Part shown: positions 28,938 to 52,727 of the stretch, one piece after another
How positions within the stretch are numbered: position 1 is the stretch's first letter
Layout: every line of letters begins with the position of its first letter
Program-made: the position numbers and the translations under genes
The notes under the pieces: generated by a model
What the model saw: only the letters and a program-made list of their open reading frames with translations
What the model was told of the DNA's origin: nothing
Database searches by the model: none
NCBI GenBank assembly: GCA_964597545.1
Contig: CAZQXN010000006.1
Span: 13,695 to 77,694, forward strand
DNA length: 64,000 bases
DNA from: an uncultured Planctomycetia bacterium
Lineage (GTDB): Bacteria > Omnitrophota > Gorgyraeia > 1-14-0-20-64-10
Direction of reading: 5' to 3'

Positions 28938-28980
28938 AGCCCTTCGGCTTCCGTAACGAAGTCAAAGGGCTTTTTTTATT
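28938..28980 (+). terminator. Intrinsic-terminator-like hairpin plus T7 run in the leader of the hdrC-kor-hdrA operon (possible attenuator)
   Basis: AGCCCTT-CGG-CTTCG...CGAAG-TCA-AAGGGCT followed by TTTTTTT (28971-28977). Located 1-2 nt before the hdrC start region. Confidence 0.4.
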
Positions 28981-29401: not shown

Positions 29402-29407
29402 GGGAGT

Positions 29408-30280: not shown

Positions 30281-30290
30281 GGCTTTTCTT

Positions 30291-35048: not shown

Positions 35049-35470
35049 CTGCGCCCCAGGCGTTTGAGCCTAAGATCGTCGGTTTCTTGTGCAAATGGTG
35101 CACCTCGGCAGCGGCCGATTTGGCCGGGGTGAGCCGATTAAAGTATCAGCCCAATGCTGTTAACATCCGGGTGATGTGTTCCTCCCGGGTGGATCCGGTG
35201 CATATCATGGAGGCCTTCCGGAATGGGGCCGATGGGGTATTCATTGGGGGCTGCCACCCCGGGGACTGCCATTATGTGACCGGCAACACTCAGACCCAGA
35301 GGCGGATCGCCATCCTCCATAAGATACTTGAGCCCATGGGGATTGAGCCCGAGCGCTTGAGGCTTGAGTGGATTTCTGCTTCGGAGGGGACAAAATTTCA
35401 GAATGCCATGAATGAATTCATCGATACCGTAAGGGCCATGGGCCCGTATAAAGCGTATGCCCAAGTCTAA
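35045..35470 (+). CDS. mvhD: Methyl-viologen-reducing hydrogenase delta subunit MvhD
   Basis: KIVGFLCKWCTSAAADLAGVSR...IRVMCSSRVDP...GADGVFIGGCHPGDCHY. Confidence 0.85.
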   Translation: MTAPQAFEPKIVGFLCKWCTSAAADLAGVSRLKYQPNAVNIRVMCSSRVDPVHIMEAFRNGADGVFIGGCHPGDCHYVTGNTQTQRRIAILHKILEPMGIEPERLRLEWISASEGTKFQNAMNEFIDTVRAMGPYKAYAQV

Positions 35471-36176: not shown

Positions 36177-36200
36177 GATTTAAAGAGGAATCCTTCGCCC

Positions 36201-37868
36201 ATGTATCCTGAGTTCATGCAGCAGTCCCTCAAAAAGGTTGAAAAGAGTCGGCCCGAGAGGCTCAAGCTCGCCAAATCCGGCAAGCCGATATTCCCGATCA
36301 TGTCTGCCAAAGAGCGGGAGGCTGTCTTAAGCTCCTCTCACCCTGACTATAAGAAGGAAAGCCGAAGGGTTGTTCGGGTGGGGCCCAATGCAGGGGAGAT
36401 GCTGACCACACCGGTTGCAGACATCCTGGAGGCGCGCCCCAGGATAGATGTGAACGATATTGACTTAAAGAAGGCCGATGCAACAACGGATCTTTTAATC
36501 ATCGGCGGTGGCGGGGCAGGGTGTGCGGCGGCGATTACGGCCCGGCAAGAGGGGGTCAAATCCACGATTGTGACCAAGCTTCGGCTCGGCGATGCCAACT
36601 CGATGATGTCTCAGGGGGGCATTCAGGCAGCCGTCAATCCCAACGATTCCCCCACCCGGCATTATCTCGATGCCATCGGGGGAGGCCACTTTGACAACAA
36701 GCCGGAGTTGGTTGAGGCCCTGGTCAACGATGCCCCCGGAGTGATCCAGTGGCTTGAGGATTTGGGGGTTATGTTTGACAAGGATGAGGCAGGCGAGCTC
36801 AAGACCTTTCCCTTTGGAGGATATTCCCGAAAGCGGATGCTCTCCTGCCGCGACTATACCGGCATGGCGATCATGCGCTGCCTCATGGATGAAATCAAGA
36901 ATTACCCCGATGAGATTGCCATCCAGGAATTCTCCTCTGCTGTGGAGCTCCTATTGGATGAAAAGGGGCGCTGCGCCGGGGCGGTGCTCTACAACATGGA
37001 GACTGAGGAGTACACGACCATCCAGGCTCGAGCCACCCTCATTGCCACCGGCGGTTTCGGCAGGCTCCACATCTCCGGCTTTGACACCACCAATCATTAC
37101 GGGGCCACGTGCGACGGTGTGGTGATCGCCTATCGGGCCGGGGCGAAGCTGTTGTACATGGATTCGGTTCAGTATCACCCCACCGGGGCCGTCTACCCCG
37201 AGCAGATCGCAGGCTTCCTGGTCACCGAGAAGGTCAGGGGCGGCGGCGGGCAGCTCTTAAACCGCGAGGGAGAGATCTTTGTCTATCCCAAGGAGCCGCG
37301 GGATGTTGAAACCGCCGCGATCATCCGGGAGTGCCAAGCAAAGAAGAGGGGCATTCAGGATAACTACGGCCGACATGGAGTATGGCTGGACTCCCCGATC
37401 ATCGATGAGATCCACGGCGCCGGTTTCATTGCCGCAAATTATCCGGCCATGGTCAGGCAGTTTGGGAAGTTCAACATCGATATCGTCCGAGAGCCGATGC
37501 TGGTTTATCCGACCCTGCATTATCAAAACGGCGGCATTGAGATCAACGTCAAGTGCGAGACCAATATCCCAGGTCTTTTTGTCGCCGGCGAAGCCTCCGG
37601 CGGCCTCCATGGCAGGAACCGCCTGATGGGTAATTCCGTGTTGGATTACAACGTCTTCGGCAAGAGGGCAGGGGTCCAGGCCGCCGAGTGCGCCAAGAAG
37701 GCTAAGGTGGGCAAGCTCTCCCTGGAGCACGTCAAGAAATTTGAAGCCCAAATGAAGAAGGCGCGCATTGTGACCGACAGGATCTCCCCGGTGTTGCTTC
37801 CCAACTACACCCCTGAGGTTATCAAGGAGCGGCAGCTCACTTCGCATTACGTGGGAACACTCAGATGA
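36201..37868 (+). CDS. Fumarate reductase/succinate dehydrogenase flavoprotein subunit-like (FAD-binding)
   Basis: DLLIIGGGGAGCAAAI (FAD GxGxxG) ...QGGIQAA...H...R motifs of SdhA/FrdA/TfrA-type flavoproteins. Confidence 0.75.
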   Translation: MYPEFMQQSLKKVEKSRPERLKLAKSGKPIFPIMSAKEREAVLSSSHPDYKKESRRVVRVGPNAGEMLTTPVADILEARPRIDVNDIDLKKADATTDLLIIGGGGAGCAAAITARQEGVKSTIVTKLRLGDANSMMSQGGIQAAVNPNDSPTRHYLDAIGGGHFDNKPELVEALVNDAPGVIQWLEDLGVMFDKDEAGELKTFPFGGYSRKRMLSCRDYTGMAIMRCLMDEIKNYPDEIAIQEFSSAVELLLDEKGRCAGAVLYNMETEEYTTIQARATLIATGGFGRLHISGFDTTNHYGATCDGVVIAYRAGAKLLYMDSVQYHPTGAVYPEQIAGFLVTEKVRGGGGQLLNREGEIFVYPKEPRDVETAAIIRECQAKKRGIQDNYGRHGVWLDSPIIDEIHGAGFIAANYPAMVRQFGKFNIDIVREPMLVYPTLHYQNGGIEINVKCETNIPGLFVAGEASGGLHGRNRLMGNSVLDYNVFGKRAGVQAAECAKKAKVGKLSLEHVKKFEAQMKKARIVTDRISPVLLPNYTPEVIKERQLTSHYVGTLR

Positions 37869-38851
37869 GCAAACCTAAGGTTGCCCTCTATTGGTGTGCC
37901 AGCTGCGGCGGATGCGAGGAGTCTGTTGTCGACTTGGCTGAAGACATCCTGACAGTCACGGATGCCATCGACATCGTATTCTGGCCGGTGGCGATGGACT
38001 TCAAATATTCCGATGTCGAAGCCATGGCCGATGGCGAGCTCACCGCCACACTTGTCAACGGTGCCATCCGAACCGATGAGCAGGAGCGCATCGCCAAGCT
38101 CTTAAGACGCAAATCCCAGCTCATTATCGCCCACGGAAGCTGCGCCCATCTGGGGGGTGTCGTGGGGCTGGCCAACTTCTACAAGCGGGAAGATGTTCTT
38201 GGGCGCGCCTACACCGAGGTTCCAAGTGTCAACAACCCCAAGAAGACGCTGCCTCAGGTGCAAACCAAAGAGTCCGGCAATGAGCTGGAGCTGCCCGGTT
38301 TTCACGGCTCGGTCAAAGCCCTGGATCAAGTGATAGAGGTGGACTATTATCTGCCGGGCTGTCCCACGCCGCCTGCGCTCATCAAGACAGCGGTTATGGC
38401 GATCCTTGAGGGGAAGTTGCCTCCCAAGGGGACGGTCATAGCGGAGCAAAAGTCGCTGTGCGACACCTGCATTCTCAAGGAGAGCAAGCCCGATGAGATT
38501 GCGGTCAAGCGGTTCAAAAGGGTCTATGAGACTGAGTGGGACTCGACCAAGTGTTTTTTGGACCAGGGGATCATCTGCTTGGGGCCTGCAACGCGAGGGG
38601 GCTGCGACTCCAGGTGCATCAAGGCGAACATGCCCTGCCGGGGCTGCTTTGGACCCACCGAGGCGGTCACAGATCAGGGTGCCAAGTTCTTGTCGGCCTT
38701 GGCCTCTTGTATCAGTTCGGACAACGGCGAGGAGTTGAGCGCCATCGTCAATTCCATCCCTGACCCTGCGGGGCTCTTCTACCGCTACAGCTTAGCCTCA
38801 TCGACGCTGAAGGCCGGAGCAGGCAAAAAGAAAGTAGAGGTCAATGAGTAA
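37865..38851 (+). CDS. mvhG: [NiFe] hydrogenase small subunit (F420-non-reducing hydrogenase MvhG-like)
   Basis: KVALYWCASCGGCEES...HGSCAHLGG...PGCPTPP...CRGCFGP. Confidence 0.8.
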   Translation: MSKPKVALYWCASCGGCEESVVDLAEDILTVTDAIDIVFWPVAMDFKYSDVEAMADGELTATLVNGAIRTDEQERIAKLLRRKSQLIIAHGSCAHLGGVVGLANFYKREDVLGRAYTEVPSVNNPKKTLPQVQTKESGNELELPGFHGSVKALDQVIEVDYYLPGCPTPPALIKTAVMAILEGKLPPKGTVIAEQKSLCDTCILKESKPDEIAVKRFKRVYETEWDSTKCFLDQGIICLGPATRGGCDSRCIKANMPCRGCFGPTEAVTDQGAKFLSALASCISSDNGEELSAIVNSIPDPAGLFYRYSLASSTLKAGAGKKKVEVNE

Positions 38852-40307
38852 GCGCATCACGATCGATCCGATTACCCGCCTGGAAGGTCACGGCAAGATC
38901 GACATTCTGCTTAATTCCAAAGGGGATGTGGAGAGGGCTTATTTTCAGGTTCCGGAGTTCAGGGGTTTTGAGAAATTCTCAGAGGGTAGAGCCGCCGAAG
39001 AGATGCCGGCCTTGACTCAGAAGATATGCGGCGTATGTCCTACCGCGCACCACACAGCCTCCTCCAAGGCGCTGGACGATCTCTTCAAGGTGGAGCCCCC
39101 GCCGGCTGCCAAGAAGATCAGAGAGCTGGTCTATAACGCCTTCATGTTTGAGGACCACCTGCTTCATTTCTATGTCTTGGGCGGCCCCGACTTTGTGGTG
39201 GGCCCCGACGCCCCCAAGACTGAGCGCAATATCTTAGGGGTCATCGGCAAGGTGGGGGTGGATATCGGTAAACAGGTCATCGATATCCGCAAACGGGTGC
39301 GGGGCATCATGACCCTTATCAGTGGCAGCCCCCTCTATCCGGTCAACGGCCTTCCCGGCGGGGTCTCAAAATCCCTGACTGAGGAGGACCGCTCCGCGAT
39401 CAAGGAAGTCGTTGACGACACCGTAGATTTTGCCAAGTTCACCTTGAAGATCTTTGAGGACATTGTTCTTAAGAACAAAGAATACGTCAGCCTCGTCACC
39501 GGCGATATCTATAAACATAAGACCTACTACATGGGGCTGGTGGATGAGAAGAACCGCGTCAACTTTTATGACGGCAAGGTCCGGGTTGTAGACCCTGACG
39601 GTCGGGAGTACGTGAAGTTTGAAGGTAAGGATTACTTAAAGCACTTGGAAGAGCGCGTTGAACCCTGGAGCTACTTGAAGCTCCTCTATCTTAAGGGGGT
39701 GGGATGGAAGGGTTTTGCAGACGGCAAGGACAACGGCGTCTATCGTGTCGCCCCCTTGGCCCGCCTCAATGCCTCTGACGGCATGGCGACCCCCTCGGCC
39801 CAGGCAGAATATGAGCGCATGTATGACACCTTAGGGGGAAAGCCGGTTCACAATACCCTCGCCTATCACTGGGCCAGGCTTGTTGAGGTGATGTATGCCG
39901 CTGAAAGGATGGGTGAGCTGGTGAACGACCCTGAGCTGACTGACCCCAAGGTCAGAAATATCCCCACCCAGGCACCCAGTGAAGGGGTGGGGGTGTGTGA
40001 GGCCCCTCGGGGAACCCTCTTCCATCACTATCAGACCGATTCCAACGCCATCATCCAAAAGACCAACTTGCTGGTTGCTACACAGAACAATGCTGCGGCA
40101 ATGTGCCTCTCCATTGAGAAGGCCGCCAAGGGGCTCATCAAACGCGGCAAGGCGGATGACGGTCTTCTCAACATGGTTGAGATGGCCTTTAGGGCCTACG
40201 ATCCCTGCCTTGCCTGCGCCACACATGCCATTGACGGCGGCCCCGCCCTTGAGATTGTCCTTCACAGCGCAGACGGCAAAGCCCACCAATCCATCAAGAA
40301 TTTCTGA
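38844..40307 (+). CDS. mvhA: [NiFe] hydrogenase large subunit (MvhA-like)
   Basis: N-terminal RLEGHG...RICGVCPTAHH and C-terminal DPCLACATHAI nickel-binding motifs. Confidence 0.85.
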   Translation: MSKRITIDPITRLEGHGKIDILLNSKGDVERAYFQVPEFRGFEKFSEGRAAEEMPALTQKICGVCPTAHHTASSKALDDLFKVEPPPAAKKIRELVYNAFMFEDHLLHFYVLGGPDFVVGPDAPKTERNILGVIGKVGVDIGKQVIDIRKRVRGIMTLISGSPLYPVNGLPGGVSKSLTEEDRSAIKEVVDDTVDFAKFTLKIFEDIVLKNKEYVSLVTGDIYKHKTYYMGLVDEKNRVNFYDGKVRVVDPDGREYVKFEGKDYLKHLEERVEPWSYLKLLYLKGVGWKGFADGKDNGVYRVAPLARLNASDGMATPSAQAEYERMYDTLGGKPVHNTLAYHWARLVEVMYAAERMGELVNDPELTDPKVRNIPTQAPSEGVGVCEAPRGTLFHHYQTDSNAIIQKTNLLVATQNNAAAMCLSIEKAAKGLIKRGKADDGLLNMVEMAFRAYDPCLACATHAIDGGPALEIVLHSADGKAHQSIKNF

Positions 40308-40448: not shown

Positions 40449-43400
40449 ATGAAGCACAACATACGCACCCTTCAACCGATAGCCGCACTTCTTGCCTTCA
40501 CGCTGGCCTGTCCGAACTCTGTCTATGCTATGCGACAGGAAGGGCCAGACTCCAAGACGGTTCGATCCGGCCTGGAAGAGGCTCTAAAAGCCGGTCCTGG
40601 CGCCACCCTGGAATACATAGAATACGGCGCCACACGCCTGACGCAAGCCCTCACCCCACCCAGCCCAGCCCCTCTATTCTCCGGCCAGGAGGAGGAGATG
40701 ACGAGCCGAACGGGCATCCACGCCGCTAAGTTCTATTTGTTGCCATTATTAGCGGAAGAGGGTTCAGTTAACACGCTAACCTATCCGGGTGGCACACCCC
40801 TTAATCTTAGACAGCTCCACAGTGATGCTGACACAGCGCTCACTATAGCCTTGATACGTGTCTTTGATGGACTAAGACTTCGTCAGGAAACAGGGGCGGT
40901 CGTAATAAGCATCGATAGAAAGACGAAGGTTGCCCACATAACGCAACTTTCCGCCGGCCAGGAGGAGGTGGAGACTATTTCCGAGCCGCTCAGACAATTC
41001 GCGAGCAACGATGAGGTGCTTGATATAGCCCTCTCCCCCGACGGCCAATTTATCGCTTCTGCAGGCTTGGATGGGACAGTTTGCCTCTGGAATGTCGGCA
41101 GTGGCGAGCCGGCTTGGAAGTACACAGGCCATACCAGCAAGGTGAATGCTGTGGACTTTTCCCCTGACGGTCGATATCTCGCTTCCGCAGGCCCAGACAG
41201 AGTTATCCGCATCCTGGATGCCGAGAATGGACGGGGGGTGCACTGGCTTAGGGGGCATTTCGATGAGGTGCTTGACGTGGACTTCTCCCCAAACAGCCGA
41301 ACCCTTGCCTCAACGAGCATGTTTGGGACGATTTACCTTTGGAGTGTTGAAAGCGGAAAGAAGTTCCGGGAGATTGGGCACCACAACGGTGTAGCGGTGA
41401 ATACCATCGATTTCTCCCCTGACGGGCGACACATTGTCTCAGGTAACATCCATGGAGATGTTGATCTCTGGAGTGTTGCCAGCGGCAGGATAGCTGGACA
41501 ATTCGAAGGGCACCACCTTGATGTACCTGTCGTGCTCTTTTCCTCTGACGGTCGATATCTTGCCACCGGAAGTAGTGACGACAGGACGGTTCGCCTCTGG
41601 GATGCTGAAAGCAGGCAAGAGCTTTGGCAGTCCAAAGCGGGAGAGCTCTTTAACGTAGCATTTTCCCCTGATAACCAACGTCTTGTCTCGACAAGCACCA
41701 ACGGGATGGTTCATCTTTGGGATGTTGCCAGCGGCAAGGAGCTGCGACGGTTTAAGGCGGGTACTCATAACATCTGGATGTTTGATGCGGTCTTCTCCCC
41801 TGACGGCCGGCAGATTATTACAGGGGATTCGGACAGCATGATTCGTGTCTGGCCGAGCGGCATGCACAGTGCCGGCCAGGAGGAATGGGTTGATATTACA
41901 GTTCCCATGTTGCAGCGCTTACATGCCAATAATCTGGTGCGGGTGGATGACCGGACTTTTCGCTTGGCCAGTAAAACTATGGATGGAACCTGGCAAGGCG
42001 CTGATGAAGAGAGCGGAGGCCCTCTGCAGCCCTTAAGCAAGGTAGATCTCCTCTCAGGGCAGGTGCTGCTTGAGGCCGGCCAAGAGGAGGGCAAGGTGGT
42101 TATGCGTACTCTCCGGCGACTTCAGGCTGCCTACGCGAGTCTTGGCAGCGCCACGGACAGCGGATCCCCTCTGCCGGCAGACGCGCAGGAAGCAACAAGG
42201 GCGGCGTACGAGCAGGTCCTGCAAGATGTCTACCGCTTAGCCAGGCCTGGCGTTGACGCGGGAACAATCGATCAGGCGTGGAATGGGTACAAAAGAGTGG
42301 CTGAGACAGTTCGGTCAGACACATTTTCCGGAACGTCTACCGAAGGCCTTGCTCTGTTGACCGGAGAGTTGAAAAACGTTGCCGCATTGCTGCAAGAGTC
42401 CGAAGATACCGCCGGCCAGGAGGAGGGGCAGGGGGATGTGGTGCAGAGTAACCTCTCTGCTCATGAGGCAGGCGAGCTTCTTGCCAAGGCGCTCAGCCCA
42501 ACCCTGTTCCATTTGCTTCGGTTGGGGCGTCAATACCGGGATGTGCAAATGCCTGATAATCAGCCGCTGACGTATACAACCCCAGCTCTCTTTGCGTCCG
42601 CGGTTTTCACAACGCTAGAGAGGATCAAAGCCAACGGCAGATGGACGGTTACCTTCCCAGCCCAAGGCGAGATCGCTGTGGTGACTGCGCATGAGGAGGC
42701 TGTTGGCCAGGAGGAGACGGTCGCGCCCCCTGAGGACTGGGACCGGATAGGAACTATCCGTACCGACTCAGATATTACCAACCTTCTGGCTCAGCGCGGA
42801 TATGGCCTTCTTTCCCCGGACGGAGACCCCTATCAGTATGTATCACATGATAAGCAACAGGTAGACATCGCCCCTTCGCTTTCCGATTCTTCATTAGGAG
42901 ATTCTTTCGGAAAACCCCGAGCTGAGTTTGAAGGGTGGCACGTTTATTCTTCGCTTCTATCAGCGCGGAAAGCTGCACAAAGAATTCGCCACGCCCGCCG
43001 GGAACAATCCTCCGGCCAAGAGGAGGGAACTGTAGCTGAGGCCTTGGTTTCCGAGAGCCGAGATCAGCCTCTTCCTCCGGAGAAAGTCATCGAGGCGATC
43101 TTGGGAGAATTGAATGAGTCGAGAGAAGTTGGGATTCGCTTCATTTGGGATAGCAACTTTGACTTTGGGATTGTTGATGAAACCCAGCCTCTTCATGATT
43201 TTGTGCATCTCAAATTTCTTCCTCGGATAGGACCTTCAGACCCAGTCCCATACGATGAGATCCGTCGGGTTGTTCCGGTCGGTCGATACATTGCGCTTCT
43301 TTCGAAAGCTGCTCAATCTGAGTTGAAAGCTACAGTTGAAGTCGCTAGGTACTCCCCCACAACCGGGCAGCTTGTTCGATTCAGCGGAGATCTTGACCAT

Positions 43401-45326
43401 TTTCACTTCGAGGGCGTCGGAGACACTCTCTTGAGAGTTCAACTTTCGGAGAGTGTCGCTGCAGCCGCAGAAGAAGCGCTTTCAGAGCGTTTTCCAGGAG
43501 ATGCCGTTTATGTTCGATTAAAGGAGGTTAGCCGCCTGGAAGTCCACGGTTTCCTGGAGGAGGACCCTCGCGGGGTGTTGGCACAGCAGTTTGGTCGACC
43601 TCAGTTAGATGCTGCCACTGACGAAGCATGGCGTTTCTTGAATCATCGAGATGATGCAAGCGATGCGCAGCTCAAGAGAGTTACCCTGGATTTTGTGCAC
43701 AGGCTTGAAACACCAGACAACATTGCGTTGTTCCAATTGCCGAGAGCAGATGAAGCAGCCATTCGATATCGTATCCGTAGATTCCAGATAAAATCTCCTT
43801 TTAGCGCAGTTAACCTCGATAAGGTTATCCTAGATGACAAAAGAGCAGTTGTCATTACGCCTGTGTTCAACCTGCCGTCTGCCTCCGGCCAGGAGGAGAG
43901 CCAGCCCGGCGTTGTCTCTGAGGAGTTGATGGGCACCCTCGCACGCGAGGGTTGGAACAAAGTTGCAAAACAGTGGGTAGCCCTCAATCGCGATGACGGC
44001 CTTACTCTCATGGATGCGCTCATTCGCGTTAACCCCGAAGGACAGGTTATCCTTTTAGGAAAGGAATTCTGGCAGCGTAACATCCCAGATACGATTGATG
44101 TCGAACGCGCTAGATCCATTGCGAGCGGATCGATCGGAAGGCAAGCAATCACAAGCGCAGTGGCAGTTGCTCCACAAGGGGTGGTTGTCCTTCAGGTCGA
44201 TCAGATGGGGGCATATGACGGTGTGACATACGAAGCGCTGGTCAGCGAGCGTACCGTCCCCATCACTGCTGAGGTCCGCCGCCTTGCCGGCCTTCCCCCA
44301 GCCGGCCAGGAGGAGGAGGATTTGATCGGGATTATCCGCGATGATCAAGATATCAATGACTTGCTCCAGCGCGGTTTTGGCCTGCTCTCTCCGGAGGGAG
44401 CCCCTTATGAATATTTATCACAGGATATTCGAAGAATAATAATCTTTCCTGTGGTTGGCGGGTCGATAGGAACTCCTTTCGGGAAACCCCGGTCTGAAGT
44501 TATAGGGTGGAGTGTTTATCCTTCGCTCAAAGCAGCGCTTGCAGCTAGTCAAAAAATAGCTCACGCTCGTTGGGGGCAATCTGCCGGCCAGGAGGAGAAT
44601 ATGACGACACGCACGGGCACTGTCGCCACTGTCTCCTATTTACTTGGCTTTGCGCACGATGGTTCTCTTGACACGCTGACTTATCCCGGCGGCAGATCCA
44701 TCAGGCTGGACAGTATCAGCGATGATCCTAATAGAGCGGTTCCCGTAGCTGTGACAAGAGTCTTTAGCGCGCTGGATCTTGATCCGCATAGGGCAATGGT
44801 CGCAATGAACATTGACGAAAGCGCGAAGACGGCTTACATAGTGCCAGAGGGCGGTCAGGAGGAAGCCTCTCTCGCAACTGCATTGGCTCCCTTTGCCAAC
44901 GCCCTAGCGCCAACTCACCCCGGGGTTTTAGTGCTTACTAATTCAGGCCTTGAGGAAAACCCAAGCCTCCTCGGCCTAGCCGCACACCCTGCTTTTGCTC
45001 AACGGATGGCGGTCTTTGCCACCCTCGCTGCCGTACAGCGCCAGCAGCTTCAAGCCGCAGGTGTTCAGGTTCTTGATGAGAACGATTTCTGGGGCCTGGT
45101 GGTAACGCTCCATGGCATGGACGAGGCCGAACGCGTGACTGTTCTTGAACAAGCCGGAACCCTTGCCAATGAACTTAGGAAAGAGCTGCCCCCTTCCGTT
45201 ACGGTTCATTTCCAGCCCATTGGCGCCACAGTCCGCGCCATTCTCTCAGCCTTCCTCCCTGAAGGAGAACTGGATCGGTTTGACGCTGAGGCATTCGGCG
45301 TCCTAGCACAACTGCTCGCTGCGTAA
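40449..45326 (+). CDS. Giant secreted modular protein B (1625 aa): signal peptide, WD40 propeller, duplicated internal modules separated by [AS]GQEE motifs
   Basis: Signal peptide (IAALLAFTLACPNSVYA). WD40 repeats (FSPDGRYLASAG...). Twelve GQEE/GLEE boundaries. Internal paralogous modules (MTSRTG.../MTTRTG...; IGTIRTDSDITNLL.../IGIIRDDQDINDLL...). Confidence 0.7.
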   Translation: MKHNIRTLQPIAALLAFTLACPNSVYAMRQEGPDSKTVRSGLEEALKAGPGATLEYIEYGATRLTQALTPPSPAPLFSGQEEEMTSRTGIHAAKFYLLPLLAEEGSVNTLTYPGGTPLNLRQLHSDADTALTIALIRVFDGLRLRQETGAVVISIDRKTKVAHITQLSAGQEEVETISEPLRQFASNDEVLDIALSPDGQFIASAGLDGTVCLWNVGSGEPAWKYTGHTSKVNAVDFSPDGRYLASAGPDRVIRILDAENGRGVHWLRGHFDEVLDVDFSPNSRTLASTSMFGTIYLWSVESGKKFREIGHHNGVAVNTIDFSPDGRHIVSGNIHGDVDLWSVASGRIAGQFEGHHLDVPVVLFSSDGRYLATGSSDDRTVRLWDAESRQELWQSKAGELFNVAFSPDNQRLVSTSTNGMVHLWDVASGKELRRFKAGTHNIWMFDAVFSPDGRQIITGDSDSMIRVWPSGMHSAGQEEWVDITVPMLQRLHANNLVRVDDRTFRLASKTMDGTWQGADEESGGPLQPLSKVDLLSGQVLLEAGQEEGKVVMRTLRRLQAAYASLGSATDSGSPLPADAQEATRAAYEQVLQDVYRLARPGVDAGTIDQAWNGYKRVAETVRSDTFSGTSTEGLALLTGELKNVAALLQESEDTAGQEEGQGDVVQSNLSAHEAGELLAKALSPTLFHLLRLGRQYRDVQMPDNQPLTYTTPALFASAVFTTLERIKANGRWTVTFPAQGEIAVVTAHEEAVGQEETVAPPEDWDRIGTIRTDSDITNLLAQRGYGLLSPDGDPYQYVSHDKQQVDIAPSLSDSSLGDSFGKPRAEFEGWHVYSSLLSARKAAQRIRHARREQSSGQEEGTVAEALVSESRDQPLPPEKVIEAILGELNESREVGIRFIWDSNFDFGIVDETQPLHDFVHLKFLPRIGPSDPVPYDEIRRVVPVGRYIALLSKAAQSELKATVEVARYSPTTGQLVRFSGDLDHFHFEGVGDTLLRVQLSESVAAAAEEALSERFPGDAVYVRLKEVSRLEVHGFLEEDPRGVLAQQFGRPQLDAATDEAWRFLNHRDDASDAQLKRVTLDFVHRLETPDNIALFQLPRADEAAIRYRIRRFQIKSPFSAVNLDKVILDDKRAVVITPVFNLPSASGQEESQPGVVSEELMGTLAREGWNKVAKQWVALNRDDGLTLMDALIRVNPEGQVILLGKEFWQRNIPDTIDVERARSIASGSIGRQAITSAVAVAPQGVVVLQVDQMGAYDGVTYEALVSERTVPITAEVRRLAGLPPAGQEEEDLIGIIRDDQDINDLLQRGFGLLSPEGAPYEYLSQDIRRIIIFPVVGGSIGTPFGKPRSEVIGWSVYPSLKAALAASQKIAHARWGQSAGQEENMTTRTGTVATVSYLLGFAHDGSLDTLTYPGGRSIRLDSISDDPNRAVPVAVTRVFSALDLDPHRAMVAMNIDESAKTAYIVPEGGQEEASLATALAPFANALAPTHPGVLVLTNSGLEENPSLLGLAAHPAFAQRMAVFATLAAVQRQQLQAAGVQVLDENDFWGLVVTLHGMDEAERVTVLEQAGTLANELRKELPPSVTVHFQPIGATVRAILSAFLPEGELDRFDAEAFGVLAQLLAA

Positions 45327-45343: not shown

Positions 45344-45423
45344 AAATCGGTACCAGGTACCAAAAGCGAAGATCGGTACCAGGTACCAAGAGCAAAAATC
45401 GGTACCTGGTACCGTTAGTTTTT
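45344..45423. repeat. Three tandem ATCGGTACC-W-GGTACCAA palindromic units (about 26-bp period) forming a perfect 13-bp hairpin plus T-run between convergent genes
   Basis: GGTACCAGGTACC at 45349-61 and 45375-87. GGTACCTGGTACC at 45401-13; the A and T versions are exact reverse complements. Then GTTAGTTTTT. Confidence 0.75.
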
Positions 45424-45933
45424 CCCTGCCTGGAATCCGATCTGTTTGCGAGCCGGCGGCTTATGGGTTTCTTCCATGAGTTTTCTGATGGCGTCAAATA
45501 CTACCTTGAATTGGGTGTCGTATTTTTTCTCCAAAGCGGCCAGACGGCGGGCCAGTTCTTTGTTGCTGGCCAGCATGGAACGGAGCTTCACAAACGTTCG
45601 CATGATGGCAATGTTGACCTGGACAGCTCGCTTGCTGCGGAGCACACTGGAGAGCATAGCTACTCCCTGCTCCGTGAAAGCATAGGGTTTTGCTCGTCGA
45701 ATGCCACCCCAGCTTGAAGTCACAAATTGTGACTTCAAGATTGAAAACTCCTTCTTGTTCAGTTGAAACATGAAATCCTTAGGGAATCGCTCCTTATTGC
45801 GCTTGACGGCCTGTATTAGGATTTTGGGTATCACACCGTACATATCAGCCAGGTCAGGGCTAAGCATTACTTTGTGGCCTCGCAGGAGGTAGATCTGTCT
45901 CTCGATTCGCTCTGATGGGATAAGCTGGCTCAT
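45415..45933 (-). CDS. ORF6N-domain protein (phage-associated DNA-binding family)
   Basis: [54 protein letters not shown]...[28 protein letters not shown] matches the ORF6N domain. A TATAAT -10 lies on the minus strand at 45987-45992. Confidence 0.7.
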
Positions 45934-46013
45934 GGGGTTGCCTCTTTCGTTATGTCCGATACTATTTGTATAAGGGATAATATAGCATTATATGCAAACA
46001 GACAACACCAAAC

Positions 46014-46135
46014 CTAACATCGGTATCGGGTACCAAACCTTATACCAAGGGGTCAGACCCTTTCGTACAGCGTGTACGGGGCAGCCGCGTACGAAAAGGT
46101 CAGACCCTAGAAAGCGGTACCTGGTACCAAGGTTT
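46014..46135. repeat. Degenerate and intact copies of the GGTACC-W-GGTACC element plus GGTCAGACCCT direct repeats upstream of the ORF6N gene
   Basis: AAACCTAACATCGGTATCGGGTACC (46011-34) is near-identical to 28739-28762. GGTCAGACCCT at 46051 and 46098 flanks the CTTTCGTAC/GTACGAAAAG inverted repeat. GGTACCTGGTACC at 46116-28. Confidence 0.6.
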
Positions 46136-46236
46136 TGTGAGATAATGCAGTCGGTTCGGAGAGCAGTATTCCCTGCACCACACCGCAAAAATCGTAACCA
46201 ATACAACGGGTATCGTCTACCTACTTAAGGGGCTGG

Positions 46237-46827
46237 ATGAAGGTCAAGGGGATCATCAAGTACGAGTCTGAGCGGGATCCGGAGTTTTCGCGCTGGATCA
46301 CCGGTGTCATGGGCGCTGAGAATATCCAGCACTGCATTCAGTGCGGCATGTGCAGCGCCGCCTGCCCCCTTGCTCCCTATATGCAGCACACCCCCCGCCA
46401 GTTGATTCAGCTCGCCCGCGAGGGTTTCAAGGAAGAGGTCCTCAAAAGCTCCACCTTCTGGTTCTGCTCAAGCTGCTATGCCTGTGCGGTGGAGTGCCCC
46501 AAAGAGATCAAGGTGACAGAGGTGATGTATGCCTTGAAGCGCCGGGCGATGGAGGAGAAGATCCACCCCAAGCGCGCTTCCATTCCGGTGATGGCAAAGG
46601 AATTTGCCCGGATGGTCTACAAGCGGGGTCGCGTCACCGAGACGGAGTTGATGACCCTGTTGATGCTCAAGACCAACCCCCTCAGGTTCTTTAAGATGTC
46701 TCGGCTCGGCCGCAAGCTCATGAGGACCGGTCGCTTCTCCTTAAAGCGTGAGAAGATCCAAGCCCGCGGGCAACTCAAGAAGATGCTCGATTCCGCCCCC
46801 TCCTGCCGGAAAGAGGAAAAGTCATGA
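46237..46827 (+). CDS. hdrC: Heterodisulfide reductase subunit C
   Basis: CIQCGMCSAACP and CSSCYACAVECP. Confidence 0.8.
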   Translation: MKVKGIIKYESERDPEFSRWITGVMGAENIQHCIQCGMCSAACPLAPYMQHTPRQLIQLAREGFKEEVLKSSTFWFCSSCYACAVECPKEIKVTEVMYALKRRAMEEKIHPKRASIPVMAKEFARMVYKRGRVTETELMTLLMLKTNPLRFFKMSRLGRKLMRTGRFSLKREKIQARGQLKKMLDSAPSCRKEEKS

Positions 46828-47702
46828 AGTACCTCTATTACCCCGGCTGCTCTCTTAAGGGGACCGGCATGGCCTATGAGGAGTCGATTCTGGAGGTCTT
46901 CAAAATCCTTGGGGTGGAGATCGAGGAGATTAAGGATTGGAACTGCTGCGGTGCGACCGCCTACATGTCGGTGGATGATTCCCAGGCATTGATCTTGGCC
47001 AGCCGCAACTTTGCCATGGCTGAGGGCAGGGGGGAGGATGTGGTGGCTCCCTGCAGCGCTTGCTATCTCACCTTAAGCAAGGCAAACCGGAGATTCCAGG
47101 AGTCACCTCAGTGCCGAGAGAAGGTTGAGCATGCGCTGGAGGAGGCAGGCTTAAAGTATCAGGGCAAGCTCAAGATCCGCCATCCGTTAGATATCCTCTT
47201 TCATGACATCACCCCGCAGGCCATCGCTAAGCACGTGAAGAAGCCGCTCAAAGGTTTTAAGGTGGCCCCTTACTACGGCTGCCAGGTGGTGCGTCCTTAT
47301 GCAACCTTTGATGACCAGTTCCATCCGATGACCATGGACAAGATCTTGTCCGCCCTCGGAGCCGAGGTGGTGCCGTACTCCTTAAAGACCAAATGCTGCA
47401 GCGGTTCTCAAGGCGGTGCGATGCCTGAGGTGACCTATGAGCTGGTCCATGCCCTGCTCAGGGAGGCCAGGCGGGTGGGCGCCAATGCCATGGCTACGGT
47501 CTGTCCGCTCTGCCAGTTTAATCTGGAAGGTTTTCAGGATGAGATCCGGGAGCGGATCGAGGATGTCCGGCTGCCGGTGCTGTACCTGCCGCAGTTGATG
47601 GGCTTGGCCTTTGGTCTGGATGAGAAGAAGCTTGGTATTCAGAGGAATTTTAGCTCGATCCAATCGATCCTGGCCGCCCAGAAGGCAGAGGCCAAGGCAT
47701 GA
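46824..47702 (+). CDS. hdrB: Heterodisulfide reductase subunit B
   Basis: YYPGCSLKGT...WNCCGATAYM...CSACY and YYGCQVVRP...CCSGSQG...VCPLCQFNLE. Confidence 0.85.
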   Translation: MKYLYYPGCSLKGTGMAYEESILEVFKILGVEIEEIKDWNCCGATAYMSVDDSQALILASRNFAMAEGRGEDVVAPCSACYLTLSKANRRFQESPQCREKVEHALEEAGLKYQGKLKIRHPLDILFHDITPQAIAKHVKKPLKGFKVAPYYGCQVVRPYATFDDQFHPMTMDKILSALGAEVVPYSLKTKCCSGSQGGAMPEVTYELVHALLREARRVGANAMATVCPLCQFNLEGFQDEIRERIEDVRLPVLYLPQLMGLAFGLDEKKLGIQRNFSSIQSILAAQKAEAKA

Positions 47703-49717
47703 GCGCTGAAGGGGCAGTGCAGGGAACCGGCCAAGAGGATCTTCGGGTCGGCTTCTACGTCTGCCATTGCGGCGTCAATATCGCCTCGATGATTGACGTC
47801 AAGGCCGTGGCCGAGTTTGCTTCCAAGCTGCCGGGTGTGGTCCTCTCGCGAGAGTACAAATACATGTGCTCTGATCCGGGCCAGGAGTTGATCTCCCAGG
47901 ACATCCGAGACAACCGCCTAAACCGCATTGTGGTGGCTGCCTGCTCGCCGCTTCTGCATGAAGAGACCTTCCGCAAGGCGACTGCCAGCGGGGGCTTAAA
48001 CCCCTTCTTTTTTCACATGGTCAACATCCGGGAGCACGACGCCTGGGTCCATGAGGATCGGGCCTCTGCCACCGAGAAGGCAATCGACTTGGTCCGCGCT
48101 GCGATTGCGCGTGTCGCAGCACACAAGGCCCTTGAGAAGAAACAGGTGCCTGTCCACCCGGATGTCTTGGTCTTGGGCGGCGGCATTGCCGGCATCCAGG
48201 CGGCCTTGACGCTGGCCAATGCCGGCAAGAAAGTGACCTTGGTTGAGCGGGAAGCGACGATCGGCGGCCACATGGCGCAGTTTGACAAGACCTTCCCGAC
48301 CCTTGATTGCTCCGCCTGCATCCTGACCCCTAAGATGTCTGCGGTCAGATCCCACCCCAACATCACCCTTTGGACCTATTCCGAGGTGACCCAGGTCGAC
48401 GGTTTTGTGGGCAACTTCACCGTGACCGTCAAGCGCAAGCCCCGCTACATCAAGGAGGATCTTTGCGTGGGCTGCCTGGAGTGTGTGGAGGCGTGCGTCT
48501 ACAAGGTAGGGCGAACCCCGGATGAGTTCAACATGGGGCTCTCCAAGCGCAAGCCGGTTTACATGCCCTTTCCGCAGGCCACCCCTCAGGTGGTGTTGAT
48601 CGATCCTGAGAGCTGCATTCAGCTTAAATCCGGCAAGTGCAAGCAGACCTGTGTCGAGGCTTGCGGGGACCGCAATGCAGTGGATCTCAAGCAGCTCGAG
48701 GAGATCAAGACCGTTGAAGTCGGCACCATCATTGTGGCGACCGGGTTTAAGACCTTTGACCCCAAGCACACCCCCTATTACGGCTATGGGATTTACCCGG
48801 ATGTCTACACCGCCTTGGAGGTGGAGCGGCTGATCAACGCCTCCGGACCCACCGCGGGCGAGGTCGTGCTTAAGGACGGGCGCAAGCCTAAATCCATCGC
48901 CATCATCCACTGCGTGGGCTCCAGAGACAATTTGACCAATAAGTGGTGTTCCCGGGTCTGTTGCATGTACTCGATGAAGCTGGCGCATCTCATCAAGGAG
49001 AGGACCCAGGCCGAGGTGTACAACTTCTACATCGACATCCGCGCACCCGGCAAGGGATATGAAGAGTTCTACGACCGCCTGCTGGGCGAGGGGGTCCACT
49101 TCATCCGAGGCCGAGTGGCTGAGGTGACCGATGCGGTGATGCCAGGAGAGGAGGCCGGTAAGTTGATCGTCCGCGCGGAGGATACCTTGAGCGGTTTTAT
49201 GCGGCGGGTGCCTGCAGACATGGTGGTCTTGGCTACGGGCCTCGAGCCCAGAGACGACGCCCAGGATGTGCGCAGGCTCTTCAACATGACCTGCTCCACT
49301 GAGGGGTGGTTCCTGGAGCGGCATCCCAAGCTTGCCCCTGTGGAGACATTCACTGACGGCATCTTTATTGCCGGCGGCTGCCAGGGCCCCAAGGACATCC
49401 CGGATACCGTGGCCCAGGCCGGCGCTGCCGCTGCTCAAGCTCTGGCTCTTATTGATACCGGGCACGTGGAGTTAGAGCCCAACACCGCCTACATTGCTGA
49501 AGAGGACTGCTCAGGCTGCAAGTCCTGTATACCGCTGTGCCCCTATACGGCGATCTCCTATGTGGAGGAGAAGAAAAAGGCCGAGATTAACGAGGCGCTG
49601 TGCAAGGGCTGCGGAACCTGCGTGGCCTCTTGCCCCTCCGGCTCCATCCGGCAGAACCTGTTTGAGGACGAAGAGATTTATAAAGAGATTGAGGGGGTGC
49701 AGTCCCATGACAAGTGA
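47699..49717 (+). CDS. hdrA: Heterodisulfide reductase subunit A
   Basis: VGFYVCHCGVNIAS...VLVLGGGIAGIQAAL...FPTLDCSACILTP. Collinear and about 60% identical by eye to 33087..35048. Confidence 0.85.
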   Translation: MSAEGAVQGTGQEDLRVGFYVCHCGVNIASMIDVKAVAEFASKLPGVVLSREYKYMCSDPGQELISQDIRDNRLNRIVVAACSPLLHEETFRKATASGGLNPFFFHMVNIREHDAWVHEDRASATEKAIDLVRAAIARVAAHKALEKKQVPVHPDVLVLGGGIAGIQAALTLANAGKKVTLVEREATIGGHMAQFDKTFPTLDCSACILTPKMSAVRSHPNITLWTYSEVTQVDGFVGNFTVTVKRKPRYIKEDLCVGCLECVEACVYKVGRTPDEFNMGLSKRKPVYMPFPQATPQVVLIDPESCIQLKSGKCKQTCVEACGDRNAVDLKQLEEIKTVEVGTIIVATGFKTFDPKHTPYYGYGIYPDVYTALEVERLINASGPTAGEVVLKDGRKPKSIAIIHCVGSRDNLTNKWCSRVCCMYSMKLAHLIKERTQAEVYNFYIDIRAPGKGYEEFYDRLLGEGVHFIRGRVAEVTDAVMPGEEAGKLIVRAEDTLSGFMRRVPADMVVLATGLEPRDDAQDVRRLFNMTCSTEGWFLERHPKLAPVETFTDGIFIAGGCQGPKDIPDTVAQAGAAAAQALALIDTGHVELEPNTAYIAEEDCSGCKSCIPLCPYTAISYVEEKKKAEINEALCKGCGTCVASCPSGSIRQNLFEDEEIYKEIEGVQSHDK

Positions 49718-50192
49718 TTGGGAGCCGCGGATTGTGGCCTTCTTCTGTAACTGGTGCACCTATACCGCTGCGGATTTGGCAGGTGTTTCCCGCATGAAAT
49801 ATGCCTCCAATGTGCGGATCATTCGACTGATGTGCTCAGGCCGGGTGGATCCGCAGTTTGTGCTGGAGGCCTTTGCCAAAGGGGCTGACGGGGTCTTGAT
49901 CGGCGGCTGCCACCCCGGCGACTGCCATTACATCGAGGGCAATCACAAGGCGATGCGGCGGGTGCGCCTGATGAAGCGGTTGCTCAAGGATATGGGAATT
50001 GAGGAGGAGCGTTTCCGCTTGGAGTGGATCTCTGCTTCGGAGGGGGATAAGGTCAAATCGGTTATTAACGAGATGGTCGAGCAGCTTAAAGCATTGGGTC
50101 CCCTGGCGCTGCCCAAGCGTTTTGTCGACTGGGACAAGGAATGCGCTGAGATGGCCGCCGGGTCCGGACAGGAGCAAGCCCACCATGGGTGA
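49707..50192 (+). CDS. mvhD: MvhD (hydrogenase delta subunit)
   Basis: Start moved to the internal Met (MTSDWEPRIVAFFCNWCTYTAADLAG...), which overlaps the hdrA stop (ATGA). The ORF-track N-extension lies in a different frame, inside hdrA. Confidence 0.85.
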   Translation: MTSDWEPRIVAFFCNWCTYTAADLAGVSRMKYASNVRIIRLMCSGRVDPQFVLEAFAKGADGVLIGGCHPGDCHYIEGNHKAMRRVRLMKRLLKDMGIEEERFRLEWISASEGDKVKSVINEMVEQLKALGPLALPKRFVDWDKECAEMAAGSGQEQAHHG

Positions 50193-51171
50193 GAAGCCGA
50201 AGGTTGCCTTTTACTGGTGCGCCTCCTGCGGGGGATGCGAGGAGTCGATCGTAGATCTCGCCGAGGATCTGCTCAGAGTCACAGAGGCGGTTGATATTGT
50301 CTTTTGGCCGGTGGGGCTGGATTTTAAGCGTAAGGATGTGGAGGCGCTGCCGGACGGGGCGATCTTGGCCTGTCTCCTCAATGGCGCCATTCGGACCTCT
50401 GAGCAGGAGGAGATGGCCCGGTTGCTGCGCAGAAAGAGCCAGGTGATGGTTGCCTATGGCGCCTGCGCTCACATGGGGGGTATTCCGGGCCTTGCCAACC
50501 AGTTCAGCCGCGAGCAGCTCTTGAAGTACGTTTACGAAGAGGCCCCTTCGGTTGATAACCCCGACAAGACCCGTCCGATGCCTAAGTTTGAAGAAGCCGG
50601 CCGCACTGCAACCCTGCCTGTTTTCCGAAACATGGTGCGCTCATTGGACCAAGTGGTGGATGTGGAGTATTACCTGCCGGGTTGCCCGCCCACCCCAGGG
50701 CTTCTCAAGGAGGCAGTCTTTACACTGCTCTCCGGCAAGCTCCCTCCAAAGGGAACAGTCCTGGCCCCGGATATTGCCCTGTGTGATACCTGTCCTCGCA
50801 AGGAGTCCAAGCCCACAGATGTTAGCTTCACTGAGCTTAAGCGCCCGCACGTCTCTGAGATCGATCCGGAGGCTTGTTTGCTGGCCCAGGGGTTTGTCTG
50901 CATGGGTCCTGCCACTCGCGGTGGGTGTGAGGCCCTGTGCGTGAACGGCAACATGCCCTGCACCGGTTGTTTCGGCCCGACCTCCCGCGTGCGGGACCAG
51001 GGGGCCAAGATCCTCTCCTCCATCTCCGCCAATATCTCGGCGACCGAAGAAGAAGGGGCAGACAAGATTCTGTCGGGATTGCCGGATCCGGTGGGCACCT
51101 TTTACCGCTATGGGCTGGCCAAGTCTCTAATGAGGCGCAACCTGGCTGCCGGCCAGGAGAAGAAGGGATAA
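50185..51171 (+). CDS. mvhG: [NiFe] hydrogenase small subunit MvhG
   Basis: Start at MGEKPKVAFYWCASCGGCEES (internal Met). Collinear with 37865..38851. Confidence 0.8.
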   Translation: MGEKPKVAFYWCASCGGCEESIVDLAEDLLRVTEAVDIVFWPVGLDFKRKDVEALPDGAILACLLNGAIRTSEQEEMARLLRRKSQVMVAYGACAHMGGIPGLANQFSREQLLKYVYEEAPSVDNPDKTRPMPKFEEAGRTATLPVFRNMVRSLDQVVDVEYYLPGCPPTPGLLKEAVFTLLSGKLPPKGTVLAPDIALCDTCPRKESKPTDVSFTELKRPHVSEIDPEACLLAQGFVCMGPATRGGCEALCVNGNMPCTGCFGPTSRVRDQGAKILSSISANISATEEEGADKILSGLPDPVGTFYRYGLAKSLMRRNLAAGQEKKG

Positions 51172-51179
51172 CCTTAAAG

Positions 51180-52727
51180 ATGGACAAAGAAATCCAGAAG
51201 AACTGGGAGAGGGGCCGGGCCGGCGCAGATGAGAGTTATCTCAAGAAGCGGCGCGTAGTGATTGACCCGATCACCCGCCTGGAGGGGCACGGCAAGGTCG
51301 ACATTCATCTTAACGAGGAAGGGGATGTGGACCGGGCCTATTTCCAGATACCGGAGCTCAGAGGTTTTGAGGTCTTTAGTCTCGGCCGCCCGGCTGAGGA
51401 CATGCCGCAGATTACCAGCCGCATCTGCGGGGTCTGCCCCACCGCCCATCACATGGCTGCCACCAAGGCGCTGGATGATCTGTATCAGGTGGAGCCCACC
51501 CCGGCGGCCAAGAAGATCCGGGAACTTGTCTACAACACCTTCATGCTTGAGGATCACGCCCTCCATGTCTATATCCTGGGTGGGCCGGACTTCATTGTGG
51601 GACCCGATGCGCCGGCCGAGACCCGCAATGTCCTCGGCGTCATTGAGAAGGTGGGTGTGGAGGTGGGCAAGAGGGTCATCGCCACTCGGCGCCGCCTGCG
51701 GGAATTGATCACCCATTTGGGTGGCAAGGTGATCCACCCGGTTCTGGGGCTTCCAGGCGGAGTGGCCAAGGGGTTGACCCAAGAGGAGCTGCCGCACTTT
51801 CAGCAATTGGCCAAGGACGCGGTGGAATTTGCAGAGTTTACCCTGCAGGTTTTCCGGGACCTGGTCTTAAAGAACGACGCCTACGTCAAGCTCATCACCT
51901 CAGATCACTACACGCATAAGACTTACTACATGGGTTTGGTGGATGAGGCAAACAAGGTCAACTTCTATGACGGCAAGATTCGCGTGGTTGATCCGGAGGG
52001 GAAGGTCTTAACCGATTTTGCCCCGCAGCAGTACCTTGACCACGTCGCCGAGCATGTGGAGCCTTGGAGCTATGTCAAATTCTGCTACTTAAAATCCGTC
52101 GGCTGGCAGGGTTTTGCTGAAGGGCCGGAGAGCGGCATCTATGCGGTGGCCCCTCTGGCTCGGCTCAATGCCTCTGACGGTATGGCCACCCCTAAGGCCC
52201 AGAAGGCGTACGAGGAGTTTTATGCGATCTTGGGGGGCAAGCCGGTCCACCACACCCTGGCCAACCATTGGGCCCGGGTGGTGGAGATGGTCTATGCGGC
52301 CGAGCGGATCGAAGAGCTGCTCGACGACCCGGAGATTACCAGCACCGATCTTCGCGTCATCCCCACCAAGACCCCCAAGGTTGGCATGGGGGTGGTGGAG
52401 GCGCCCCGAGGCACCCTGTTCCATCACTTTGAAACCGATGAAAAGGGTTTGCTTACCAAGGTGAACCTCATTGTTGCCACCCAGAACAACGCAGGCCGCA
52501 TCGCCATGAGCGTGGAGAAGGCCGCCAAGGGCTTGATCCGCAAGGGTAAGGTTTCTGACGGCTTGCTGAACATGGTGGAGATGGCATTCCGCGCTTACGA
52601 CCCCTGTCACGCTTGCGCCACCCACTCGCTTCCCGGCCAGATGCCCCTGATTTTGCAGGTGCGTGATGCGTCGGGCCGCGTTGTTGAGGAGGTCAGCCGA
52701 TGCGTGACCCCAAACCCCGCACCTTAA
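51180..52727 (+). CDS. mvhA: [NiFe] hydrogenase large subunit MvhA
   Basis: Start at MDKEIQ... (internal Met). RLEGHG...RICGVCPTAHH ... DPCHACATHS. Confidence 0.85.
   Translation: MDKEIQKNWERGRAGADESYLKKRRVVIDPITRLEGHGKVDIHLNEEGDVDRAYFQIPELRGFEVFSLGRPAEDMPQITSRICGVCPTAHHMAATKALDDLYQVEPTPAAKKIRELVYNTFMLEDHALHVYILGGPDFIVGPDAPAETRNVLGVIEKVGVEVGKRVIATRRRLRELITHLGGKVIHPVLGLPGGVAKGLTQEELPHFQQLAKDAVEFAEFTLQVFRDLVLKNDAYVKLITSDHYTHKTYYMGLVDEANKVNFYDGKIRVVDPEGKVLTDFAPQQYLDHVAEHVEPWSYVKFCYLKSVGWQGFAEGPESGIYAVAPLARLNASDGMATPKAQKAYEEFYAILGGKPVHHTLANHWARVVEMVYAAERIEELLDDPEITSTDLRVIPTKTPKVGMGVVEAPRGTLFHHFETDEKGLLTKVNLIVATQNNAGRIAMSVEKAAKGLIRKGKVSDGLLNMVEMAFRAYDPCHACATHSLPGQMPLILQVRDASGRVVEEVSRCVTPNPAP

Follow-up and report, generated by a model that had tools for sequence, protein, structure and literature searches.

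Genes and repeats of the locus

The window, i.e., the whole 64-kb stretch of DNA analysed here, contains three giant genes, A, B and C, a small ORF6N/KilA-N-type gene and a queE gene. A short palindromic repeat is present in five clusters. Three of these are located 3' of the giant genes, one lies upstream of the ORF6N gene and one is read in frame within queE. The features are as follows.

13865-13931, forward strand: decayed doublet in queE (13405-14250), GGTGCCAGGTAGC ... ATCGGTACCTGGTACCGT
22721-28720, forward strand: giant gene A, 1999 aa, WD40
28721-28739, forward strand: single A-centred putative REP unit after A, AATCGGTACCAGGTACCAA, beginning one base past the TAA of A
28740-28792, forward strand: G/C-centred variant doublet (putative REPIN) after A, arms GGTACCGGGTACA (28750-28762) and CGTACCCGGTACC (28774-28786)
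40449-45326, forward strand: giant gene B, 1625 aa, WD40
45344-45416, forward strand: three-unit array after B, units 45346-45363, 45372-45389 and 45398-45415, centre bases A, A and T, 26-bp period
45415-45933, reverse strand: ORF6N/KilA-N-type gene, Pfam PF10543, E 6e-32
46010-46135, forward strand: composite element, outer arms formed by a degenerate unit at 46019-46036, GGTATCGGGTACC, and by AGCGGTACCTGGTACCAA at 46113-46130
58439-63715, forward strand: giant gene C, 1758 aa, no Pfam match
63716-63772, forward strand: cluster after C, consisting of a degenerate partial unit GATCGGTACTCC, an A-centred unit (63729-63746) and a T-centred unit (63755-63772), 26-bp period

Giant gene A has internal tandem repeats of about 126 bp which are 79-83% identical and lie in the WD40 region (25179-26037). 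The order giant gene, Fer4/HdrB-like gene, HdrA, and large subunit of an Mvh/Vhu-type hydrogenase occurs twice within 22721-63715. The two Hdr/hydrogenase blocks (28979-40307 and 46237-52727) share 64-70% DNA identity in parts, and each has a giant ORF before and after it.

The repeat unit

The unit, GGTACC-N-GGTACC, is nearly palindromic over its 13 bp and has a conserved AATC as its 5' foot. A doublet consists of two such units at a distance of about 25-26 bp, and their centre bases are complementary, A then T. The exact unit GGTACCWGGTACC occurs eight times in the window (13917, 28725, 45349, 45375, 45401, 46116, 63732 and 63758) compared to 0.00 expected from shuffles. Allowing up to two mismatches in GGTACCWGGTACC/GGTACCNGGTACC, 12 units are found versus 1.2 expected, all confined to the five clusters (13865-13931, 28721-28792, 45344-45416, 46010-46135 and 63716-63772). 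The exact 18-mer ATCGGTACCWGGTACCAA is present five times. The hexamer GGTACC as such occurs 28 times in the window versus 6.9 expected. Nine of these sites are outside the clusters, approximately a chance number. Thus, the palindromes noticed in a sequence-only reading of this DNA are confirmed, including the copies upstream of the ORF6N gene and inside queE and the statement that GGTACC elsewhere is found only as isolated sites. The tandem period of 26 bp claimed there applies exactly to the three units after B and the two after C. After A, a single A-centred unit is followed by the G/C-centred hairpin.

The individual clusters differ in detail. The TAA stop of A (28718-28720) immediately adjoins AATCGGTACC and fills the conserved TAA position at the left end of the element; the arms of the G/C-centred doublet which follows are extended by AACCTA/TAGGTT and fold with -34.6 kcal/mol. 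Giant gene B and the ORF6N gene are convergent, and the array after B occupies the space between their stops. The stop of B (45324-45326) is 19 nt upstream of the first unit, and the T-centred unit can pair with either of the A-centred ones. After C the degenerate unit adjoins the TAA stop (63713-63715) and the cluster forms a perfect 13-bp hairpin. The composite at 46010-46135 encloses an unrelated inner palindrome, GGGTCAGACCCTTTCGTAC / GTACGAAAAGGTCAGACCC (46050-46107), with 19-nt arms that are 89% complementary, nested in the loop of the GGTACC doublet, and has the appearance of another repeat family that inserted into a REPIN.

Hairpin formation

Adjacent copies had been proposed to form hairpins and this is borne out: the stems comprise 13-16 bp with fold z-scores around -5, and a doublet as a single strand folds into a stem of 13-17 bp. 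RNA folds of the clusters after A, B and C have -29.5 to -44.6 kcal/mol (z -4.7 to -5.0), and the composite (46005-46140) folds with -59.5 kcal/mol (z -6.4). The centre bases are complementary in 53 of 60 adjacent unit pairs, one of them a G/C pair, when about half would be expected. This indicates that the pairing itself is conserved; as judged from these comparisons, the hairpin is under selection. The modal spacing of the units is 25 bp among the copies of relatives versus 26 bp in the window. An Rfam scan of the window at gathering thresholds returned only the tmRNA and tRNAs, and no known RNA family at the repeats.

After B the stem is followed by GTTAGTTTTTCC, an interrupted T-run, and a consensus terminator scan flags both strands. 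The copies after A and C have no T-run and the element consensus ends G-A/T-T, i.e., without a T-tract. A T6-T7 run is present in some copies of relatives, e.g., after a tmRNA. REPs are known to terminate transcription and to stabilise mRNA (PMC6006769). A role as terminator or transcript 3' hairpin is plausible as a secondary one, and for some copies only.

The element in related bacteria

An element of about 50 bp, (T)TAAAATC-GGTACCAGGTACC-AAAnnGGCAATC-GGTACCTGGTACC-G, is present on dozens of contigs from related PVC-type bacteria which are labelled Planctomycetia or Omnitrophica. Alignment of the copies yields the consensus ttaAaATC-GGTACCAGGTACC-aAanggGcaaTc-GGTACCTGGTACC-G(a/t)t. The foot A-A-T-C is conserved in 36/40, 36/40, 40/40 and 40/40 copies, values partly fixed by the search pattern. 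A scan with the 18-mer using one genome per species yielded 41 loci compared to about 35 estimated from database size. About half of the 41 loci have a second doublet 16-52 bp away, which is unlike chance, and two uncultured Planctomycetia-labelled MAGs supply 10 contigs with the 18-mer. A scan of metagenomes yielded 89 further loci, of which about 60 have a high G+C content (0.60-0.67) and stem from few samples. The 18-mer was absent from 2.9 million viral contigs, and a phage origin of the repeats was rejected on these grounds. A literature search with the strings GGTACCAGGTACC and GGTACCTGGTACC found no paper.

How close are the carriers to the bacterium of the window? Its tmRNA shares 75-82% identity with those of three carrier loci and its QueE is about 52% identical to that of one Planctomycetia-labelled carrier MAG. 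QueE homologues of the window are labelled Candidatus Omnitrophica. On these identities we take the bacterium to be PVC-type and only a distant relative of the carriers.

In the relatives about 20 copies adjoin the stop of an ORF that lies upstream or runs convergently, the first GGTACC beginning after a gap of 3-5 nt. In these copies the TAA of the stop fills the conserved left end of the element, as it does after A. The respective ORFs mostly code for 100-700 aa; one has 1079 aa and one, a WD40 ORF (L058), at least 2857 aa. Many other copies are positioned directly upstream of a Shine-Dalgarno sequence on the opposite strand, or within long ORFs. Yet others are found behind a tmRNA, where a T7 run is present (L113 and L116), or behind a tRNA-like 3' end (L040, L124).

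When the recruiting copy of each locus is left out, one additional cluster is found per approximately 28 kb in the relatives, compared to five clusters in the 64 kb of the window. The density in the relatives translates into a few hundred clusters per genome. The sequence-only reading had stated that hundreds of random intergenic sites genome-wide would denote an ordinary REP family with no specific link to the giant genes. An abundance of this order is indicated by the density in relatives, as opposed to a count in the source genome.

Loci of low G+C content labelled Herbinix, Clostridiales, Anaerolineaceae, Metabacillus and Patescibacteria have local arrays of the same core with other spacings. 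No RAYT gene was found within the fetched flanks of the low-G+C (Clostridia) arrays. The unit GGTACC-N-GGTACC-AAAGGGACAGGT recurs at L012, L026, L046, L106 and L139, which are Patescibacteria-labelled and unlabelled metagenome loci.

Repeat-encoded protein inserts

The copy in queE is translated in frame as ...ESVPGT... and constitutes a loop insert of about 22 aa in a 281-aa QueE. The insert is missing from 234-aa homologues. At the same QueE loop the protein P0163 has a different, independent repeat-encoded insert (RYQVP, LVPGT, GTWYR). Similar situations prevail in other proteins of the relatives. In GatA (L032) the peptide TVPGTGTVPGT lies within a 9-residue gap in 3H0L, and for LeuRS (L100), 1H3N has a 9-residue gap across which the repeat-encoded SVPGTKTEIGTRYP extends. 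As judged by eye, similar repeat-encoded inserts are present in an Era-like GTPase, in GcvT and in an RlmN-like protein. The frame in which such copies are read is almost always that of (S/V)VPGT.

The queE gene contains a second, unrelated palindrome of about 88 bp (14037-14124; outer arms GGTCACCCCACCACCCG / CGGGTGGTGGGGTCACC) that is also read in frame. Inserts of this kind are found at the same position in P0125, P0144 and, twice, in P0127. They are not present in the 234-aa QueE proteins.

A transposase bracketed by the repeat

A Y1_Tnp gene is located on a carrier locus of a relative:

L097 6323-6904, reverse strand: Y1_Tnp protein, 193 aa, Pfam PF01797, E 1e-12, above cut-off

This gene is bracketed by units, a cluster at 6276-6340 and a doublet at 6953-7001. 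The sole NCBIfam match of the protein is REP_Tyr_transpos with 59.9 bits, versus a curated cut-off of 80. It has an HVH motif and YVERNP, which corresponds to the Y---NP signature of class 2 (TnpA-REP) proteins (Quentin et al., PMC6006769). A profile of 25 members of the clade has its best PDB match with 4ER8, the E. coli TnpA-REP (E 7.8e-7); the ISDra2 TnpA is matched with E 1.7e-4.

The RAYT homologues and the repeats beside them are listed here, with identities measured against the L097 protein.

L132/L133, 63%: same GGTACCWGGTACC units, on both sides in L132, at the 3' end in L133 (contig short upstream)
L141, 59%: same GGTACCWGGTACC units, seen at the 3' end (58 bp upstream on the contig)
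L137, 57%: same GGTACCWGGTACC units, on both sides
L134-L136, 58%: GGTACGWCGTACC
L138, 49%: GGTACCGGGTTCCACGGGGACAC (altered unit)
L139, 47%: GGTACCGGGTACC and AAAGGGACA (altered unit)
L140, 40%: unrelated repeat

On this comparison of sequences the repeat co-varies with the RAYT. REP/REPIN-RAYT systems are defined by just this arrangement, a transposase gene with the dispersed repeat on both sides and a repeat that co-varies with the enzyme (PMC3116915, PMC6006769). L134-L136 and L137 have gene neighbours in common, as is expected of a vertically inherited single-copy RAYT. The RAYT of L139 is bracketed by its repeat, too; the genome has 45% G+C and the unit is that of the Patescibacteria-labelled loci. 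Given this GGTACCGGGTACC-type repeat in a 45% G+C genome, one widely spread RAYT lineage with a conserved core is possible.

The 64-kb window itself contains no Y1 transposase or RAYT gene. That its organism possesses one is inferred from the relatives, whose QueE is about 52% identical; a RAYT would then reside elsewhere in the genome.

Two further observations concern the RAYT genes. They end within a REP unit (L097 6326-6340; L132 approximately 1373-1389; L141 638-682), with a C-terminus ...SVPGT followed by the stop. Thus, both the stop and the final codons of the transposase gene come from its own repeat. At L068 (6-196) part of a second RAYT is present, with P0016 as its best match, and the repeat behind it, GTGTCCCC-T/C-GGTACCCGGTACC, is of a different kind, which suggests that the clade harbours two REPIN-RAYT systems.

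Giant-gene ends and alternative readings

All three giant genes, and no other forward-strand gene of the window, have a cluster within 0-19 nt of the stop. By simple, post hoc counting, three out of three among about 16 gene ends with a spacer amounts to roughly 1 in 560. Two explanations were tried and rejected. Usage of TAA as a stop is by itself insufficient as a cause, as 18 of 48 genes end in TAA. Segmental duplication does not account for it either: A and B share only the WD40 region, C matches neither, and there are no shared 3' ends. The latter indicates that the copies are separate insertions and not descendants of one ancestral copy. The C-terminal 499 aa of giant gene B have no homologue at E<=1e-10.

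The claim that the palindromes mark the 3' end of every giant gene stands for the window, three out of three, and fails as a statement of specificity because copies in relatives adjoin ORFs mostly of 100-700 aa, tmRNA or tRNA genes and ribosome-binding sites, or are located in the interior of ORFs. One may nonetheless ask whether the hairpins are dedicated 3'-end signals of giant genes, acting as intrinsic terminators or stabilising very long mRNAs by blocking exonucleases, which evolved or were recruited for this role and did not accumulate passively as mobile repeats. In addition to the coincidence in the window, the giant WD40 ORF of L058, a fourth case, has its end 4 nt ahead of an element. 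Stem stability is very high, the T-rich tail after B is flagged on both strands, some copies of relatives have T6-T7, and termination and mRNA stabilisation are known REP functions. Set against this are the copies after A and C and the element consensus, all without a T-run, and the many elements inside ORFs, ahead of ribosome-binding sites and beside ordinary genes. A secondary use of some copies does not define the identity of the family, and we consider a dedicated signal improbable. In our reading the ends of the giant genes are the clearest ends of transcription units amid tightly packed operons, and the repeats are found there because such repeats collect at gene ends. This does not fully account for the preference seen in the window, which may be real.

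The adjacent ORF6N gene invites a different reading, namely that the units are an operator array of a dimeric DNA-binding protein, specifically of the ORF6N/KilA-N-type protein itself. Each unit is a two-fold symmetric double hexamer, and the gene has the 45344-45416 array on one side and the 46010-46135 composite on the other, with the bracketing units in inverted orientation (arms 45394-45414 and 46115-46135, 81% complementary). Yet for a 54%-identical ORF6N copy, which the relatives L044/L077 have in an AT-rich patch, a GGTACC doublet is lacking over several hundred bases around it, and conversely tblastn detected an ORF6N gene within about 4 kb in 0 of 41 motif-bearing genome loci. Units are also found in frame inside housekeeping genes, and it is the RAYT gene that they bracket repeatedly. 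The G+C content of the ORF6N gene is 49.5% versus 57% for the window; the gene interrupts the spacer between giant gene B and the hdr-like operon, and looks like a foreign insertion beside the repeats; it is probably a small foreign or mobile gene that came to lie next to existing ones. The notion of a binding-site array is therefore abandoned as highly unlikely. A comparably low likelihood is assigned to MITEs, i.e., internally deleted derivatives of a DDE-transposase IS that move by cut-and-paste via terminal inverted repeats, a label which the sequence-only reading had also used. Short, palindromic, multi-copy elements devoid of coding capacity, in arrays of both orientations, would fit such a description. 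A target-site duplication of at least 3 nt was, however, found in none of 61 copies, and even 2-nt matches of the flanks, seen in only 9-12 of 61, stay near the background of 3-6 given by permuted controls. The lack of target-site duplication agrees with single-strand transposition by a Y1 enzyme of the IS200/IS605 type and argues against a DDE-type MITE. Further, no IS with matching ends was present in about 0.6 Mb of carrier loci, and the sole transposase bracketed by units is a Y1 HUH enzyme.

A probable REPIN-RAYT system

Thus, with a probability of roughly 85% we are dealing with a REPIN-RAYT system whose REP units are mostly paired into hairpin-forming doublets (REPINs). Many dispersed copies of a short palindromic unit exist, 12 units in five clusters here and dozens of contigs per metagenome, and the designation as a REP-like palindrome family holds: in relatives the element is found at numerous unrelated positions, and it flanks a RAYT gene. 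The canonical head GT[AG]G or CGTC is not present in the consensus and the foot AATC is found instead. The REP family is non-canonical, with AATC where GTAG would be the usual head. In a doublet, AATC is located on the same strand in both units. The units are thus direct repeats with respect to their flanks, and inverted, i.e., capable of pairing, only through the palindromic core.

Differences in presence and absence across relatives, as looked for under mobility, do exist. The 3' flank of the tmRNA gene has the element in L113/L116, and it is absent in the window. The flanks at this locus are too diverged to fix the exact insertion boundaries or an empty site. The loop of queE is filled in the window and in P0163, and is empty in the 234-aa homologues. 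The tmRNA of the window (9768-10174; Rfam 153.7 bits) encodes the tag peptide AKNMVKGIAPVVPMRPAVVPMALAA.

In a REPIN-RAYT system copies would be propagated as follows, by analogy to E. coli TnpA-REP and IS200/IS605. A single-copy Y1 HUH RAYT encoded elsewhere in the genome would bind the folded single strand, cut beside the foot tetranucleotide and re-insert copies without target duplication. The site preference apparently is for T/A-rich, TTAA- or TAA-like sequences, which would explain why copies adjoin TAA stops or are found just upstream of ribosome-binding sites. Copies would persist where they do little harm, i.e., behind the final gene of a transcription unit, in the gap of a convergent gene pair, or as in-frame inserts in surface loops (VPGT peptides). 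The copies after A, B and C, beside ORF6N and inside queE would be five such insertions, and some may secondarily act as transcript 3' hairpins. In this scheme the RAYT of the source genome, its cleavage chemistry and its target preference are all inferred.

Comparison with known systems

The closest likeness is with REP/REPIN-RAYT systems such as the E. coli BIMEs with TnpA-REP (4ER8) and the REPINs of Pseudomonas fluorescens (PMC3116915, PMC6006769). Common features are short palindromic units, mostly as hairpin doublets, tens to hundreds of copies near gene 3' ends, no target duplication, and a Y1 HUH gene which, in the relatives, is bracketed by units and with which the repeat co-varies. 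Different are the foot, AATC and not GT[AG]G, the core, which is a doubled KpnI site, the shared flank orientation of units that pair only via this core, and the large number of intragenic copies. Further, the core is kept across RAYT homologues down to about 47-57% identity and in genomes from 45 to 65% G+C.

Surveys of REPs have reported copies up to 20 bp from ORF 3' ends, termini that supply stop codons, in-frame intragenic dimers, and occurrence in Planctomycetes and Verrucomicrobia (PMC3733652). The GTAG/CGTC REPs, e.g., of Opitutus terrae, and the Rickettsia RPE (Di Nocera et al., PMC3733652) resemble the present family in that they lie within 20 bp of upstream ORF ends with termini providing the stop, that in-frame dimers add about 10-30 residues to housekeeping proteins, and in their occurrence in the PVC superphylum. 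According to their descriptions they are set apart by tag and sequence, which differ, and by the reading frame, here (S/V)VPGT.

The subterminal hairpins of IS200/IS605 elements (IS608, ISDra2) offer a mechanistic parallel that may apply: a hairpin with a 5' guide tetranucleotide, a Y1 transposase, single-stranded DNA, and a short specific target without duplication. There, hairpins flank an autonomous IS with tnpA (and tnpB), whereas the hairpins described here are dispersed on their own; and the profile of the clade transposase is nearer to TnpA-REP than to the ISDra2 TnpA.

Implications

The repeats are neither a signal specific for giant genes nor ORF6N operators and are unfit for annotating those genes. 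The family accounts for odd extra loops in proteins, in QueE here and in GatA, LeuRS and others in relatives, and for stop codons supplied by a repeat. For the biology of REPINs it provides a well-defined non-GTAG family, from PVC-type lineages that have been little studied. As the core is conserved over an unusually large divergence of RAYTs and hosts, the family is a good case for studying the constraint between RAYT and repeat and the crossing of phyla.

Tentatively, one may go further, although we regard the following as rather doubtful. A single old REPIN-RAYT lineage with an unusually constrained doubled-KpnI/AATC repeat may have persisted in deeply diverged PVC-type bacteria (QueE about 52% identical), and may have spread to Clostridia (Herbinix-like MAGs), Anaerolineae and Patescibacteria, or have arisen there by convergence; local arrays of the 18-mer are present in these groups. 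Such a lineage would routinely decorate essential proteins with in-frame VPGT loops, and in the bacterium of the window it may have been preferentially kept as a 3' hairpin of giant-gene transcripts. If true, this would mean an inter-phylum spread of a transposase system supposed to be vertically inherited and domesticated.
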